From an uncultured Brevinematales bacterium (GTDB taxonomy: Bacteria > Spirochaetota > Brevinematia > Brevinematales > JAOACQ01), in NCBI GenBank assembly GCA_964533855.1, contig CAZHNM010000014.1, forward strand, positions 5,238 to 69,237: 64,000 nucleotides of DNA, read 5' to 3'. Below the pieces are notes generated by a model that did no database searches, was not told the origin of the DNA, and was given only the letters and a program-made list of their open reading frames with translations. Made by a program: the position numbers and the translations under genes. Of this stretch, positions 1-4,616 are shown piece after piece (position 1 is the stretch's first letter; each line of letters begins with the position of its first letter).

Positions 1-1
1 A

Positions 2-91
2 TGGGCAGTTGCAGCACAGGCTATCTCTAATATGTATATACAGGCTAAGGCAAACAGTAGTCACATTGGGCTGAAGGAATTATACCACTAA
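2..91 (+). CDS. Possible 3' end of a plus-strand gene truncated by the window edge (...WAVAAQAISNMYIQAKANSSHIGLKELYH*)
   Basis: Frame 2 is open from the window edge to TAA at 89-91, convergent with the RHH gene ending at 96; no family recognisable. Confidence 0.35.
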   Translation, partial: WAVAAQAISNMYIQAKANSSHIGLKELYH

Positions 92-95
92 TAAA

Positions 96-320
96 TCAAA
101 TAAGATCATTCTTTTTCATATAATCATAAAGTACTGTCCTGATACCGGACATCATGGATAGTCCTTTATTATTAAAATGTTCCTGCAGTATCTTTTTATA
201 ATTATCAGGCATTGCTATATTAAAAACCTTTTTCTTCTGTTTTTTATATTTTTCTGATTTTTCAAAAGTGTCGGTACTTTGGATGATTCCTGTTTTCAAC
301 TCTTCTTTTTTCAATGGCAT
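96..320 (-). CDS. Small ribbon-helix-helix type partition adaptor (ParG/omega-like centromere-binding protein)
   Basis: 74 aa, basic flexible N-terminus, C-terminal beta-alpha-alpha pattern (VFNIAMPDNYKKILQEHF...SGIRTVLYDYM); directly downstream of ParA. Confidence 0.65.
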   Translation of the reverse strand: MPLKKEELKTGIIQSTDTFEKSEKYKKQKKKVFNIAMPDNYKKILQEHFNNKGLSMMSGIRTVLYDYMKKNDLI

Positions 321-321
321 A

Positions 322-1074
322 TTATATGACTTCCAGGATCACATTTCCTATATCTTTTATTGATGGAATGCTTTTTGAGTCAGGATAGGCCTCAAAAATG
401 CTTTTATTGACCATCTGGCTCTCAGCCAGTTTTGAATCCTGGGGTATAAAAAATAGCCTGTAATTCATTTTCTTAAATTCTTCCATTACTAAATTATGCC
501 TCCTGAAAGAATGATTTACAAGATTTATCACGACCTTATCATGTTTAATTTCCCGCCGAAAATTTTTCCTGATTTTCTTCAATTCATCAGTAAAGATTGT
601 CAGCCCTTCCAGGCCAAAATACTCGGGTGTGAAAGGCGTTATGACTTCCTGCAGGGAAAGTATGATGCTTTTTTCAAGCCGGGACATTCCCGGTGAAAGA
701 TCATAAATAATAAGATCAAAGTTCAGACTGCGGAATTCCTCAAAAAGATCGACAAAAATAAAAGGTTCATCATTCAGTTTTGTTTCCGAATAATTCTTGA
801 GCATTCCGTTTATTCCAAAAGACGGTATAAAATAAAGGTTTTCATTATATTGGACAATAGTATCGGAAACGGAGACTTTACCGGCAAGTATGTCTGCGAG
901 TTCATGCTTTAAACCTTCTAGTTTTGTAAGAAACCAGGAACTTAATGATCCCTGCGGATCTCCGTCTATAAGCAGGGTTTTCCTGCCTGTGCTTGCCGTA
1001 TAATATCCAACTGATCCGGATATGGTTGTTTTACCTACCCCACCTTTCAGGACATGAAAACCAAAAGATTTCAT
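322..1074 (-). CDS. parA: ParA family partition ATPase (type Ib, no N-terminal HTH)
   Basis: Deviant Walker A KGGVGKTT, Walker A' LIDGDPQGSLS, Walker B IIYDLSP; RBS GGAGG upstream. Confidence 0.93.
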   Translation of the reverse strand: MKSFGFHVLKGGVGKTTISGSVGYYTASTGRKTLLIDGDPQGSLSSWFLTKLEGLKHELADILAGKVSVSDTIVQYNENLYFIPSFGINGMLKNYSETKLNDEPFIFVDLFEEFRSLNFDLIIYDLSPGMSRLEKSIILSLQEVITPFTPEYFGLEGLTIFTDELKKIRKNFRREIKHDKVVINLVNHSFRRHNLVMEEFKKMNYRLFFIPQDSKLAESQMVNKSIFEAYPDSKSIPSIKDIGNVILEVI

Positions 1075-1102
1075 AAATATCCTCCCGGAATTGTATTATC
1101 TT

Positions 1103-1188
1103 AATACCATAATAATATTAAAATCATATAATGATTTTATGAAGTTAATATCATTTCAATACTATGATTATATCAAAATAATATCATT
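1103..1188. repeat. AT-rich phased repeat array upstream of parA (candidate parS/operator)
   Basis: AATAYCAT-like units at 1147, 1158, 1169, 1180 (11-bp period); TAATATCATT at 1146 and 1179; inverted repeat TAAAATCAT-ata-ATGATTTTA at 1119-1139. Confidence 0.55.
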
Positions 1189-1265
1189 AAAATTACAAAG
1201 GTTTATAAAGGAAATCCTTTTCAATCTCTGAGATTAAAGATTACCCTTCAGTCACTTATATAGCT

Positions 1266-1934
1266 TTAAGAATATAAATTATTGTCATCTAAATTTTTTA
1301 TAAATTTCTCAAAAGATTCAGGCGGAGGATCATATTTTATTGACTTCTCTTTTTCCCTGCGTTTAAATTCCAGCCTTTTTCCTTCTTCCTCTCTCAATTT
1401 ATTGGTTACTAAATACCCAATGAGTTCTCTATCTTTCAGACATTTTGCCACATAAGCCGGAATGTTTTTGACGTATGAAAGCGTCTCAACATATTTTTTA
1501 ACCAGGTTTCTTATCTGTGCCTGAGAGAGAGATTTAATATTTGTTTTATTACCTGTATTAATATACTGATCATTTTGATCAGGCTGATTCATCTTTTTGA
1601 TTAGAGCCTCTGATCCTTTTGATTTATCTGTCTCATCATTTTGATCAGGGACAATTATAACCCTGATATTGGAACTTAGTTTCCTTATATGTCCGTCAAA
1701 GCTTATCACGGATATTAATTTCAATTTTTTCAGGTGAGATATTGATCGTGTTACAGTTGGGATTGATACACCAAGAAAATTTGCAAAATATTCATTTGAG
1801 GCAAAGCAGCCGTCTTCAAGCTGGCTCAGACTGTCAATTTCAGCTAAAAGCAGCTTTTCATTTGCAGAAAGATCAGAGCATAAATAAATAGCCTTTGGTA
1901 TCCATACGCCTTTAAAATCTCTTTTTTCATTCAT
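1266..1934 (-). CDS. Phage-type replication initiator (replisome organiser) with N-terminal winged HTH
   Basis: N-terminus RDFKGVWIPK..LSANEKLLLAEIDSL..GCFASNEYFANFLGVSIPTVTRSISHL is typical of HTH_36 phage replication proteins; internal DNA repeats in the linker. Confidence 0.8.
   Translation of the reverse strand: MNEKRDFKGVWIPKAIYLCSDLSANEKLLLAEIDSLSQLEDGCFASNEYFANFLGVSIPTVTRSISHLKKLKLISVISFDGHIRKLSSNIRVIIVPDQNDETDKSKGSEALIKKMNQPDQNDQYINTGNKTNIKSLSQAQIRNLVKKYVETLSYVKNIPAYVAKCLKDRELIGYLVTNKLREEEGKRLEFKRREKEKSIKYDPPPESFEKFIKNLDDNNLYS
1569..1649. repeat. Four iterons inside the rep gene (candidate replication origin)
   Basis: ATCATTTTGATCAGG (1569), ATCTTTTTGATTAGA (1591), ATCCTTTTGATTTAT (1613), ATCATTTTGATCAGG (1635): exact 22-bp period. 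Confidence 0.8.
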
Positions 1935-1937
1935 TAA

Positions 1938-2276
1938 TCAGGCCTTCTGTTTAAAAAGGTTATCCCGAATAAAGGGCAGTAATTCCAGAACAACTTTTTC
2001 CTTTTCTTCAGTCGTTAAATTAAGAAAATATTCAACAGTTGCTTTTTCTTTTATTCCCAGGCATTTTTCAATTTTAAAACGCGGTATCGGATAATAAATT
2101 GACTTACGCCCTTCTTTACTGATTTTACCTCCGAATTCCTGCCAGTGGTCATAAAAATAGTCAATTGAGAAGGATGGGAATATTCTGGAAGCTTCTGCCG
2201 GGCGTACGGCATCATTATTTTTCAGATAATCTTCAATTCTTTTCTGCTTCTGTTCTTTGATCTCTTTTGATGTCAT
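1938..2276 (-). CDS. Small hypothetical DNA-binding protein, possibly excisionase/RDF or Cro-like
   Basis: 112 aa, basic, first gene of the leftward operon, RBS GGAGA; weak winged-helix-like segment AVRPAEASRIFP; call is mostly positional. Confidence 0.4.
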   Translation of the reverse strand: MTSKEIKEQKQKRIEDYLKNNDAVRPAEASRIFPSFSIDYFYDHWQEFGGKISKEGRKSIYYPIPRFKIEKCLGIKEKATVEYFLNLTTEEKEKVVLELLPFIRDNLFKQKA

Positions 2277-2285
2277 AAATTCTCC

Positions 2286-2323
2286 AAAAAATAAGCCCGA
2301 TAGCGTGGTAGCGCTGATCGGGC
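2286..2323 (-). terminator. Intrinsic terminator in the leader of the leftward (xis-rep) operon
   Basis: Minus-strand RNA GCCCGAUCAGCG-CUACCA-CGCUAUCGGGC followed by UUAUUUUUU, directly before the RBS of the 112-aa gene. Confidence 0.75.
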
Positions 2324-2505
2324 AACTTACGGTGTAGTTTTGATAGGAATTAATGATAAGAACACATCTACTATTTCTAAAACTACACTTATTGCTCTTG
2401 GGCTACCACCCGGAATATATTGAAATTATATATCTTTTATTTTATACTTTAATAATAAAGTTTGTTATTTTTAAACTCTTTACCAAGCATGTCTTTATTA
2501 GACAT

Positions 2506-2534
2506 ATTATATGTCAATATAGACACATTGTCAA
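2506..2534 (-). promoter_or_regulatory. Perfect sigma70 promoter driving the leftward operon, overlapped by palindromic operator-like sites
   Basis: TTGACA (2534-2529), 17 bp, TATAAT (2511-2506); palindromes ATGTCT-N5-AGACAT (2489-2505) and GACATA-N3-TATGTC (2501-2515). Confidence 0.85.
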
Positions 2535-2579
2535 TACCTACAATCAAGTATTTTGAGTAGTATGTGGAGATTTATTATA

Positions 2580-3263
2580 ATGCAAAATGAAAGATTAAAA
2601 ACAATACGAAATTCTTTAGGTCTGACCCAGAAGGAATTCGCAGGGAAATTAGATTTAAAGGTAGAAACTTATAAAAATTACGAGTTCAGAAATAGAGATA
2701 TACCAGGTATTATATTAGAAAAATTAATTTCTGTTTTTAATATTAATTTAAACTGGCTTGTGTCCGAAAACGGATCCATGTTTGAGAAACCAATTACAAA
2801 AACCCGTTTATTCCAGACATTTGACTTGATTATTAATTTATCTGAAATATTACCATATATTTCAAAGCCTGTAGTAAATATAATTGTTGAAACGGAACCT
2901 TCTTCTGCCTGGAACCTGCCCTGTCTGGTTCTTGAATCATTTGATTCCGGTGAATGGTATTTGTTCGGCCGTAGCAGAATCGCATTTCAAGGGAATGGGG
3001 GCGGTTATAACAACATGGTGAATCTATTAACCATGCTCAAAAAATACAAAATATCAATAGGAAAATGGACTTTATCAAGGCAGATGATTGATGACTTTGA
3101 AGCCGGGTTAATACTATGGTCTGAAATTAAAAAAAATGCCGTTCCAGCACTTTCAGCAATAAACGAACAGGATTCCTGGCAGTCGACAATTAATCAGATG
3201 AAGGAAATGTTTAAAAAAGAATATAACGAATTGAGTGAAGAAGAAATTAAAAAGATGCTCTAA
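2580..3263 (+). CDS. XRE-family HTH repressor with unassigned C-terminal domain
   Basis: ERLKTIRNSLGLTQKEFAGKLDLKVETYKNYE is an HTH_3 pattern; RBS GGAGA before ATG 2580; divergent from the rep operon. Confidence 0.85.
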   Translation: MQNERLKTIRNSLGLTQKEFAGKLDLKVETYKNYEFRNRDIPGIILEKLISVFNINLNWLVSENGSMFEKPITKTRLFQTFDLIINLSEILPYISKPVVNIIVETEPSSAWNLPCLVLESFDSGEWYLFGRSRIAFQGNGGGYNNMVNLLTMLKKYKISIGKWTLSRQMIDDFEAGLILWSEIKKNAVPALSAINEQDSWQSTINQMKEMFKKEYNELSEEEIKKML

Positions 3264-4321
3264 TCAATATCCGGCATCTTCTCCGGTAAGAATCCTGTCG
3301 GCATATTATCTATAAACTGCTTCTTATATTCATCCAGTGGATTAATATACCTGTCAGTCATCTTTATATCTGAATGCCCCATAAGTTTTGAAAGAGCAAA
3401 AGGATCAATTGAAATACCGTTAACTCTGGTTGCTGCAAGAGTAGTTCCGAAAACATGACGGAGATCATGCAGGACAAGGTCTTTAATATTCAGCAATCTG
3501 CATAATATGCTGAATGAATCCGACAGTTCCCGGGCTGTCATTGAAAACAATTTCCCTTCTTTAATGCCATTTGTTTGGATCCATAGAATCAGATCGCTCC
3601 TCAGCCGCGGATGAAGAATAATCGTTACCCTCTTCCCCGTTTTACCCTGGGTCATGGTCTGCCTGTACTGTATAATTTCCTGATCGAATTTCAACTTTTC
3701 AATCGTCAGATCGAGTACATCAGAACGGCGCAGCCCTGTCATGCAAAGCGTTTCGATTATAAGGAATAATTCGGGGTCATGGATAGATTCAAAAATCTGT
3801 CTCAATTCAACAGGGGTCGGTATGCGGTCCCTGTGCATCTCATCGTAAGGCACAGGAATATCCTTCAATTTAACCTTTTTCTCCTTTAACTCGCCCCAGT
3901 CTTCAAGCTTTGAAAAGAATCCGGAGATAGTATTTAATTCACGGTTAATAGTGGTATTTTTCACACTTTTCTGCCTTTCGCGCTTATAAATATCAATATC
4001 GAGAGTTGTATAATCCTCGATCTTCTTATCCCCTACGACTTCAATAAATCTTTTAATATTGTTCTCGTCCTGCCGCCAGCCTTTATTATTTACCTTTGCC
4101 CAGTTCTCAATGTAAAGAGTTATCAGTTCACTGGCCAGTCTTGCGGGTTTCTGCTTTTTAAGATCATAGAATTCACCGATCGAAATTTTAAATTTAATTT
4201 TATCCTCTTCGATATCCGCATCCTTTTTGCGTGTGATTCCATGAAGTTTGATTCTTTTCCGCTTGCCTTCAAGAATAACCGAAGCATAATAAGCCCTGTC
4301 TTTATTATCCCAATAAGCCAT
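3260..4321 (-). CDS. int: Tyrosine recombinase / phage integrase
   Basis: Catalytic motifs TGLRRSD (R), HDLRH (H-x-x-R), LMGHS (H), TDRY (Y); N-terminal arm-binding-like and SAM-like domains; RBS GGAGGA. Confidence 0.95.
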   Translation of the reverse strand: MAYWDNKDRAYYASVILEGKRKRIKLHGITRKKDADIEEDKIKFKISIGEFYDLKKQKPARLASELITLYIENWAKVNNKGWRQDENNIKRFIEVVGDKKIEDYTTLDIDIYKRERQKSVKNTTINRELNTISGFFSKLEDWGELKEKKVKLKDIPVPYDEMHRDRIPTPVELRQIFESIHDPELFLIIETLCMTGLRRSDVLDLTIEKLKFDQEIIQYRQTMTQGKTGKRVTIILHPRLRSDLILWIQTNGIKEGKLFSMTARELSDSFSILCRLLNIKDLVLHDLRHVFGTTLAATRVNGISIDPFALSKLMGHSDIKMTDRYINPLDEYKKQFIDNMPTGFLPEKMPDID

Positions 4322-4333
4322 GGATTCCTCCTC

Positions 4334-4415
4334 TTACTGGCAGATTTACTGGCAGAAAAGTGTCAGTGTCAGTGAAACCTGTAACTCATTATAATTTACT
4401 GGCACCTGACTGGCA
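4334..4415. repeat. Integrase arm-type binding repeats
   Basis: TTACTGGCAGA at 4334 and 4346, TTACTGGCA at 4396, TGACTGGCA at 4407; inverted variants TGTCAGT at 4361 and 4367. Confidence 0.75.
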
Positions 4416-4416
4416 A
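4388..4416 (-). promoter_or_regulatory. Candidate integrase promoter
   Basis: TTGCCA (4416-4411), 17 bp, TATAAT (4393-4388) on the minus strand. Confidence 0.6.
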
Positions 4417-4518
4417 ATTTCACCAAAATAGGCGAAATCAGCCAAACGGAACCCTTTGAAAATCATTGAAATATATAGAATTAATTGGCTGGTCTGGTTG
4501 GATTGGCCCCAGGAATAT

Positions 4519-4603
4519 CGGAGAGAGGGGGATTCGAACCCCCGGTACATTGCTGTACACGCGCCTTCCAAGCGCGCTCCTTAAACCACTCGGACATCTC
4601 TCC
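4519..4603 (-). tRNA. tRNA-Ser (anticodon GGA), CCA not encoded
   Basis: GGAGAGA/TCTCTCC acceptor stem, D-loop GAGTGGTTTAAGG, anticodon arm CGCGC-TTGGAAG-GCGCG, long variable arm, T-loop GGTTCGAATCC, discriminator G. Confidence 0.97.
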
Positions 4604-4616
4604 AGAAGAGCCGGAT

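Follow-up and report, generated by a model that had tools for sequence, protein, structure and literature searches.

How is a replication operon transcribed when a predicted strong terminator stands directly in front of its first gene? This question is raised by a leader of about 210 nt on the minus strand of the window, as we call the whole 64-kb stretch of DNA analysed here. The original prediction had placed a promoter at 2534–2506 (minus), followed by a leader that ends in a terminator at 2323–2286 right before the first RBS, and had read nested complementarities within this leader as mutually exclusive folds of an RNA switch. Its observation is confirmed: the promoter is present and matches the consensus at 12 of 12 positions (TTGACA-17-TATAAT), and leader and terminator are arranged as described. 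Its interpretation is partly supported.

The leader and its mobile element

The leader belongs to a low-GC island (29–39% GC versus 43–52% beyond it) whose integration site is marked by a tyrosine integrase gene (3260–4321, minus) together with a tRNA-Ser(GGA) (4518–4604, minus). The terminator precedes ORF112 (1938–2276, minus), which starts with an AUG at 2276 and has the RBS GGAG at 2285–2282. Further downstream are the gene of a replication initiator (rep; 1266–1934, minus; HTH_36 and PHROG replication-initiation families), which contains three iterons of 18 nt at about 1566–1649 (converted from L005 6628–6711), and the genes of ParA (322–1074, minus) and of an Arc-like protein (96–320, minus). 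The link with replication drawn in the original prediction holds, since a replication initiator and partition proteins are products of the downstream operon. With Rep, ParA and the Arc-like protein, the element is plasmid-like. The island extends past the window start, where L005, a longer copy of the same contig, encodes a cytosine methylase and an EcoRII-like nuclease. The closest relative of the element is found in an uncultured Spirochaetota MAG. The source of the DNA is wetland and peat metagenomes.

ORF112 has no match in Pfam or PHROG. Its AlphaFold model (mean pLDDT 72.7, and 84–91 for the core at residues 21–70) predicts a winged-helix-like core with the order strand-helix-helix-strand-strand. 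Foldseek searches with this model gave weak matches (E > 0.4) to winged-helix DNA-binding proteins, namely MarR, ArsR, RdfS and Pukovnik Xis, two excisionases being among them. Our guess from the model is that ORF112 may be a DNA-binding or excisionase-like regulator.

An XRE/HTH_3 repressor-like gene (2580–3263, plus) is divergent from the early operon. Just downstream of the early promoter lies an inverted repeat, ATGTCT-N5-AGACAT (2505–2489), which is a likely repressor operator, and TATTGACA occurs twice in the promoter region, 17 bp apart. A consensus promoter is present in the homologous elements described below as well, where the inverted repeat at this place is a different one. Every element thus combines a repressor gene with an operator-like inverted repeat at a consensus promoter, and the sequence of the repeat differs from one element to the next. 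The repressor gene is of the XRE type in the window, in L001 and in L004 (where it is truncated at the contig end), and encodes a ribbon-helix-helix protein, not an XRE protein, in L118. A candidate promoter pointing to the XRE gene (TTGAAA-17-TATACT, 10 of 12 positions; 2420–2448, plus) faces the early promoter and lies 8 nt away from the first conserved hairpin of the leader, P1. Similarly placed sites occur in L001 (TTGATA-17-TATACT) and L118 (TTGACT-17-TAGAAT); these repressor-directed promoter calls are consensus matches only, of a kind common in the AT-rich DNA here. The RNA element of the leader would be a second checkpoint downstream of this protein switch.

This RNA element is about 130 nt long and consists of three hairpins on the minus strand. 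P1 (GGG-UGGUAG-CCC, 2411–2400) displays the 6-nt loop L1 (2408–2403). P2 (2388–2332) is a long hairpin with a closing stem of 10 bp (GUGUAGUUUU/AAAACUACAC) and a variable interior. P3 (GCCCGAU-C-AGCG-CUACCA-CGCU-AUCGGGC, 2323–2295) is the terminator hairpin; its 7 bp, C bulge and 4 bp carry the 6-nt loop L3 (CUACCA, 2311–2306), and it is followed by the U-tract UUAUUUUUU (2294–2286) and then by the GGAG. All three hairpins, the small one at 2411–2400 included, are present in the minimum-energy fold of a 221-nt leader, and this fold is better than those of 200 out of 200 shuffled sequences (z = -3.4).

With its 11 bp, 1-nt bulge and 6-nt loop, P3 of the window folds at -17.0 kcal/mol. Across the four leaders compared below, the terminator hairpins range from -17 to -18.3 kcal/mol and all four have a U-rich tail. 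By these features, P3 and UUAUUUUUU are predicted to form a strong intrinsic (Rho-independent) terminator, which a simple terminator scan overlooked, presumably because the stem has a bulge. The hairpin ends 10 nt before the RBS in the window; this distance is 4 nt shorter in L001 and about 30 nt in L118. No consensus promoter was found between terminator and RBS in a consensus scan. Given a strong terminator and a gap free of consensus promoters, expression of ORF112 and rep must pass the terminator.

The 5' part of the leader (2412–2499, minus) is variable and cannot be aligned between homologues. It contains an AU-rich hairpin at about 2490–2444 and a 13-codon uORF at 2490–2449, which had been suggested to take part in the switch. 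The uORF exists, but it has no Shine-Dalgarno sequence and is not conserved, having no counterpart in L001, L004 or L118. Leader-peptide attenuation was rejected on these grounds and on the position of the uORF upstream of P1. A proximal promoter that would make P1–P3 a separate gene is not conserved and was rejected as well.

Conservation of the hairpins and of their loops

Relatives of the element are rare. ORF112 forms 3–4 clusters among 5.8 billion proteins and gave 9 matches among 1.84 billion representatives, and the XRE protein had one relative in a protein-cluster search. Three further independent leaders were obtained. L001 comes from a Spirochaetota MAG recovered by a genome scan with ORF112 (L002 and L003, in the same MAG, are the same sequence at 99.7%), L004 is a 2.3-kb Logan contig, and L118 is a 55-kb contig with an element that IMG/VR lists as a predicted provirus of 32 kb. 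A few distant relatives of ORF112 came from an exhaustive profile search, and the leader is absent from two of them, L117 and L119. BLAST against phage and plasmid collections gave no match, with DNA or with protein, and scans of viral contigs gave nothing new, returning the L118 element again, cut at ORF109. A pattern scan of metagenomes for the terminator returned 106 stretches, and every locus fetched among them was a chance match of high GC content and without a U-tract.

A covariance model was built from the window leader alone, with P1, the base of P2 and P3 as its structure. It detected L001 (49.5 bits), L118 (43.9 bits) and L004 (35.3 bits) with E values from 4e-9 to 7e-6, in each case at the corresponding place upstream of the ORF112 homologue, and gave no further match in the 64-kb window or in the other loci. 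The leader alignment was guided by this model and replaced MAFFT alignments that were out of register. As the model did not include the helix between L1 and L3, which was added afterwards as a pseudoknot, that helix had no part in fitting the alignment.

All four leaders follow the same plan, with P1, a long P2 and a terminator P3 with a 6-nt loop. L1 is the exact complement of L3 in all of them, in three sequence versions: UGGUAG and CUACCA in the window and L118, UUGUCG and CGACAA in L001, UGCUCG and CGAGCA in L004. This holds even for L001, where P1 has a longer stem and an 8-nt loop closed by a G-A pair and the complementarity of L1 is still 6/6. The L1:L3 helix (2408–2403 with 2311–2306) is paired in 24 of 24 alignment cells. 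Compensatory double changes are seen at three of its six pairs (G-C to U-A, G-C to C-G and A-U to C-G), and none of the six is changed on one side only in the four leaders. With 6 of 6 loop bases complementary in each leader, the two loops have the sequences expected of a kissing complex.

Similar support was found for the stems. In the closing stem of P2, 8 of 10 pairs are changed on both sides and 100% of the cells are paired, whereas P3 is largely constant (8 of 11 pairs invariant, one covarying). Taking all helices together, 97.4% of the cells are paired versus 83.2% in shuffled alignments, and none of 500 shuffles attains the 97.4%; 12 pairs are altered on both sides, and controls with slid partners are paired at 33–45%. 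Both exact complementarities of the original prediction, 2402–2409 with 2305–2312 (8/8) and 2379–2388 with 2332–2341 (10/10), are thus present in the window, conserved and covarying; the three relatives keep both helices with compensatory changes, as the check for covariation proposed with the prediction anticipated.

In the window alone, the 8-nt match does not exceed chance expectation, as the stretch of 371 nt that includes it has four perfect inverted repeats of 8 nt, and it is the relatives that carry the case. The complement of each terminator loop occurs once per leader, 85–94 nt before the terminator, and this spacing is constant despite the variation of the P2 sequence. The chance of finding a loop complement anywhere in a shuffled leader is 0.007–0.045 per leader (0.02, 0.027 and 0.007 for the three versions). 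The joint chance of the three versions is about 4e-6 with any leader position allowed, in a comparative set of four independent sequences, two of which share the same loops.

An explanation at the level of DNA, or chance, appears very improbable. The 8-mers (the GTGGTAGC sites) would then be inverted protein-binding sites, or ssDNA hairpins of an origin or a transfer system. Such a role would suit a region between a repressor gene and a replication gene, and an 8-nt inverted repeat is expected by chance in the window taken by itself. It does not account for compensatory changes by which three versions stay exactly complementary at a fixed position, nor for sites that lie exactly in hairpin loops, one of them that of a canonical terminator with a U-tract. 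The likely promoter operators differ in sequence from the 8-mers, and the iterons lie elsewhere, inside the rep gene, and are of another sequence. Moreover, three G-U pairs of the sense strand are A-C on the opposite strand, and since G-U pairs occur on the sense strand only, the structure belongs to that strand.

Together, these comparisons indicate that P1-P2-P3 is a new RNA motif absent from Rfam, supported by covariation though its family is small. No Rfam family matched the leader in the window at E values up to 10, or those of L001, L004 and L118 up to 5, which agrees with the earlier remark that the structure was not recognised as a known Rfam family. Literature searches found no description of the motif.

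Geometry of the proposed loop contact and passage of the terminator

The conserved complementarity comprises exactly the two 6-nt loops. Its extension to 8 nt is automatic, each hairpin being closed by a G-C pair of like orientation. A complementarity restricted to loops has the geometry of a kissing loop or pseudoknot, in which the terminator can stay intact, and not that of a classical antiterminator that overlaps the 5' arm. In the four leaders, no partner of this arm (GCCCGAU) is conserved. A third complementarity that had been described, between 2392–2397 and 2320–2325 and the only one to involve that arm, pairs at 5 of 6 positions in the window but is not kept in the relatives, where a different match of 6 bp is seen in L001, 3 bp in L118 and hardly any pairing in L004. 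An antiterminator extended to the 5' arm was rejected, as it can be formed by chance in L001 (CUUAUC:GAUAAG) and is absent from the others.

The order of folding was examined with models that exclude pseudoknots. In transcripts cut before the 3' arm of the terminator, the long-range L1:L3 helix folds in all four leaders. In full-length leaders, the terminator fold is the thermodynamic minimum in 4/4 and is better than the alternative by 4.1–8.0 kcal/mol (4.1 in the window), and a direct path from the alternative to the terminator fold crosses a barrier of about 19–21 kcal/mol; as pseudoknots are ignored, these energies and barriers overstate the conflict between the two folds. Of the mutually exclusive folds proposed earlier, the early appearance of the nested fold in truncated transcripts is borne out by these pseudoknot-free models, but exclusivity is not established, the pairing being in the loops only. 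On this modelling, an antiterminator role is possible but unproven.

The reading closest to the original prediction is a riboregulator acting only in cis, with 2402–2409/2305–2312, 2392–2397/2320–2325 and P2 nested against the terminator and the uORF perhaps involved. The nested fold is indeed the minimum-energy fold of transcripts without the 3' arm, it costs only 4.1 kcal/mol in the window, and its barrier is about 19 kcal/mol with pseudoknots disallowed. We nevertheless consider this reading unlikely: the helix by which the 5' arm of the terminator would be sequestered is not conserved, the uORF is neither conserved nor provided with a Shine-Dalgarno sequence, and no input signal such as a ligand pocket, a tRNA site or a leader peptide is identifiable, the unpaired regions being not conserved.

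Our preference, which is tentative, goes to a three-hairpin kissing-loop attenuator placed before the ORF112-rep(-par) operon, in which the L1:L3 contact would permit read-through. L1 is transcribed about 90 nt ahead of L3 and could capture the emerging L3 segment before the 3' arm of the terminator exists. Their contact would delay closure of the terminator, and RNA polymerase would read into the replication genes; occupation of L1 by anything else would restore termination. The read-through reading was adopted, with measured confidence, because P1, P2 and L1:L3 are the only conserved upstream aids for passing the terminator. We infer from this arrangement the control of termination by the pairing and its direction, as well as any action in trans and any processing. 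The geometry also speaks against such a control. The complementarity stops short of the 5' arm GCCCGAU, whereas every classical antiterminator, to our knowledge, reaches this arm. Loops of 6 nt can kiss with both hairpins intact, so that the pairing may not hinder termination, and it could even pre-organise the terminator loop.

These points would fit a leader without any switch, a real though minor possibility, in which L1:L3 is architectural and compacts or stabilises a small, mostly terminated leader RNA or splints the closure of the terminator and so speeds it. Expression of the downstream genes would then be a leak that occurs once the repressor leaves the promoter. Complementarity limited to loops and compatible with two intact hairpins, a terminator fold that is the minimum in all four leaders and a 5' arm without conserved partner are all as expected for such a role, and a repressor gene and an operator-like repeat at the promoter are already there in every element. 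A hairpin of -17 kcal/mol with a good U-tract, however, needs no helper, and a strong terminator set 10 nt before the RBS of a replication operon, together with an elaborate structure of fixed spacing, is hard to explain if it is unregulated.

If the kissing-loop attenuator operates, the most economical competitor for L1 would be the terminator hairpin of earlier leader RNAs, which would display the complementary loop. The loop sequences would then be a specificity code, of which three versions are seen; its positions read U-N-N-U-N-G versus C-N-A-N-N-A, with three variable loop positions. Terminator hairpins of earlier leaders might in this way kiss the nascent P1 loops of the same group, set the balance of termination and read-through into the replication operon, and provide an RNA-only self-recognition that requires no antisense transcription and defines immunity or incompatibility groups among mobile elements of spirochaetes, an extension that we regard as rather doubtful. 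A full-length leader tends to pair its own L1 and L3, and a processed 3' hairpin must therefore be postulated for action in trans.

Pairing of L1 and L3 exclusively between molecules seems quite unlikely. Either a terminated or processed short RNA would target nascent leaders, whether of its own element or of one that is coming in, and give RNA immunity or incompatibility as P4 CI and P1 C4 do, or the molecules would dimerise hand in hand; the three loop versions would be orthogonal specificity groups. Fast RNA-RNA recognition usually relies on hairpin loops, and both partners are carried on such loops; close relatives with nearly identical terminator stems have three specificities, while the distant L118 has the loops of the window; the element is plasmid-like, and precedents exist (PMC4825925). 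The linkers, of 9–19 and 6–8 nt, are long enough for L1 and L3 to pair in cis, and such pairing would win over pairing in trans. A second target site was not found elsewhere in the element, nor did the leaders match the C4/CI RNA family. The loops vary no faster than the P2 stem, and since P2 covaries about as fast as they do, diversifying selection on the loops is not clearly indicated.

Known RNA controls and traces of transcription

In the systems of C4 RNA and of P4 CI RNA with its seqA, seqB and seqC, the effector is complementary to two targets, one upstream and one downstream, and is released by RNase P. The C4 RNAs of P1 and P7 differ by covarying bases; in P4, termination depends on Rho and processing excises the RNA. 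Like these systems, the leader studied here has sense-strand RNA complementarity in an early or replication leader, tied to premature termination, and its regulator and target come from one promoter. Unlike them, it has its effector-like site in the loop of an intrinsic terminator, and the element also has a protein repressor. A search of the element for a second loop-target site with at most one mismatch gave none but one chance-level match inside the methylase gene. The analogy with P4 CI and P1 C4 made in the original prediction is therefore fair in logic, but there is no C4-family match and one target site is found instead of two.

The account of P4 CI RNA given in PMC4825925 presents it as a short leader RNA that acts on its own transcripts in phage immunity. 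IsrK of the Gifsy-1 prophage is another RNA whose short terminated form acts in trans on its own read-through transcript (PMC4825925). IsrK resembles the present leader as a prophage leader ending at an intrinsic terminator, with short and read-through forms that share sequence. It differs in that it activates translation of a downstream ORF via long helices, without a loop-loop contact to the terminator loop, and it has no sequence relationship with this leader. The model proposed here would follow the logic of P4 CI, and that of IsrK with the opposite sign.

A second group of controls comprises pT181, pIP501/pAMbeta1 and pCF10 prgQ/Anti-Q, in which a leader with a terminator precedes a replication or transfer operon and a pre-emptor decides on the terminator. 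Recognition is via hairpin loops, and pIP501 adds a small repressor. In such countertranscript systems the antisense RNA is made from a promoter on the opposite strand within the leader, and the pre-emptor pairs with the 5' arm of the terminator. The present leader shares with pT181, pIP501 and pCF10 an intrinsic-terminator leader upstream of a replication operon; unlike in pT181 and pIP501, the pairing involves the terminator loop only and not the 5' arm. A consensus scan found no opposite-strand promoter downstream of P1, and the only one present points away, to the repressor gene. An antisense RNA over P1–P3 of the pT181/pIP501 type was rejected, as no promoter for it overlaps P1–P3.

Fully complementary kissing loops of 6–7 nt between two molecules are known from TAR-TAR* and from ColE1 RNA I/RNA II. 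For OxyS, a kissing complex of its terminator loop with fhlA is cited in PMC11979758. The loops described here are alike in being 6 nt long, exactly complementary and closed by G-C pairs; they are unlike in that both are on one transcript and one is part of an attenuating terminator. In sum, the leader resembles the P4/P1- and pT181-type controls in logic and belongs to none of them.

Two other classes of leader were considered and rejected. A T-box, in which a conserved UGGN pairs with the NCCA end of a tRNA and a specifier loop is present, is not compatible with a P1 loop in which UGG is not conserved (UUGUCG in L001, UGCUCG in L004), and no Rfam T-box match was obtained. A riboswitch would have conserved unpaired nucleotides that form a ligand pocket; the linkers and the interior of P2 cannot be aligned, and the only conserved positions outside stems are the mutually covarying loop bases.

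Should the loop contact control the terminator, the leader would represent a new class of attenuator that targets the loop of a terminator and not its stem, with both pairing partners on the sense transcript. It would add to the short list of RNA-based immunity and copy-number controls of mobile elements (P4, P1/P7, pT181, pCF10) and bring in the Spirochaetota, which are little studied. Synthetic control of transcription would gain a compact part of about 130 nt with at least three naturally orthogonal 6-nt codes. If the contact is only architectural, P1-P2-P3 would still be a new covariation-supported motif absent from Rfam, of modest interest.

Among the RNA contigs found, none covers the leader. 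One metatranscriptome contig (2061–2323, depth about 2) runs through the terminator into ORF112 and is compatible with read-through. Its end at 2323 is probably an assembly effect of the palindrome, because DNA contigs from several runs also break there, at 2317–2330. A second RNA contig lies inside the XRE gene.

Repeats and promoter-like sites around the early promoter

The early promoter of the element is embedded in repeats (window 2489–2536, minus strand). Two copies of the direct repeat TATTGACA, 17 bp apart, span the −35 box and the spacer, and an inverted repeat, ATGTCT-N5-AGACAT, directly follows the −10 box. These direct and inverted repeats are probably repressor operators. An inverted repeat is found at the equivalent place in every homologue, with a different sequence each time; in L118, one of the related leader loci, its counterpart is a perfect 44-bp palindrome (2696–2739).

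Just upstream of hairpin P1, a promoter-like site directed at the divergent repressor gene was detected in three of the four elements: the window (2420–2448, plus strand), the related locus L001 (3824–3796, minus strand) and L118 (2824–2796, minus strand). The repressor promoter and the early promoter would thus lie face to face, with a convergent overlap of 45–110 nt. Between the early promoter and P1, L118 also carries a 16-bp hairpin with a T-run, on the opposite strand from the leader (2754–2791, minus strand). It resembles a terminator that would stop antisense transcription running toward the repressor gene. The other three leaders showed no such hairpin.

Hairpin P2 itself contains a weak promoter-like site, TTTAGA-17-TATCAT (window 2353–2381, minus strand), and P2 of L001 holds a matching one, TTTAGA-17-TATGGT. 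This site accounts for the sole sequence similarity within the interior of P2. L118 and L004, the remaining related leader, lack it, so it is probably not functional.

Candidate iterons, cargo and extent of the element

The HTH_36 replication-initiator gene contains three direct repeats of 18 nt (CCTGATCAAAATGATGAG and variants; minus strand) with spacings of 44 and 22 nt, at window ~1566–1649, equivalent to 6628–6711 in L005, a longer copy of the same contig. They resemble the iterons of an origin that lies within the initiator gene, the arrangement known from lambda O-type replicons.

The element (window 1–4604) is integrated next to tRNA-Ser(GGA) and extends beyond the window start. A search of the available sequence gave no att repeat. 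Its continuation in L005 (8543–12339) comprises three small ORFs, a PF00145 cytosine methylase and an EcoRII-C nuclease, making up a restriction-modification cargo.

Contig breaks and redundant copies

In five runs, four of DNA and one of RNA, the Logan contigs break inside the terminator palindrome, at window 2317–2330. These breaks are probably an assembly-graph effect and are not to be taken as an RNA end. The element was also found on three contigs of MAG CAWIGG01 (L001, L002 and L003; 99.7% identity), which is explained either by redundancy in the assembly or by the presence of several copies or strains in the same bin. In some of these copies ORF112, the first gene after the terminator, is frameshifted.
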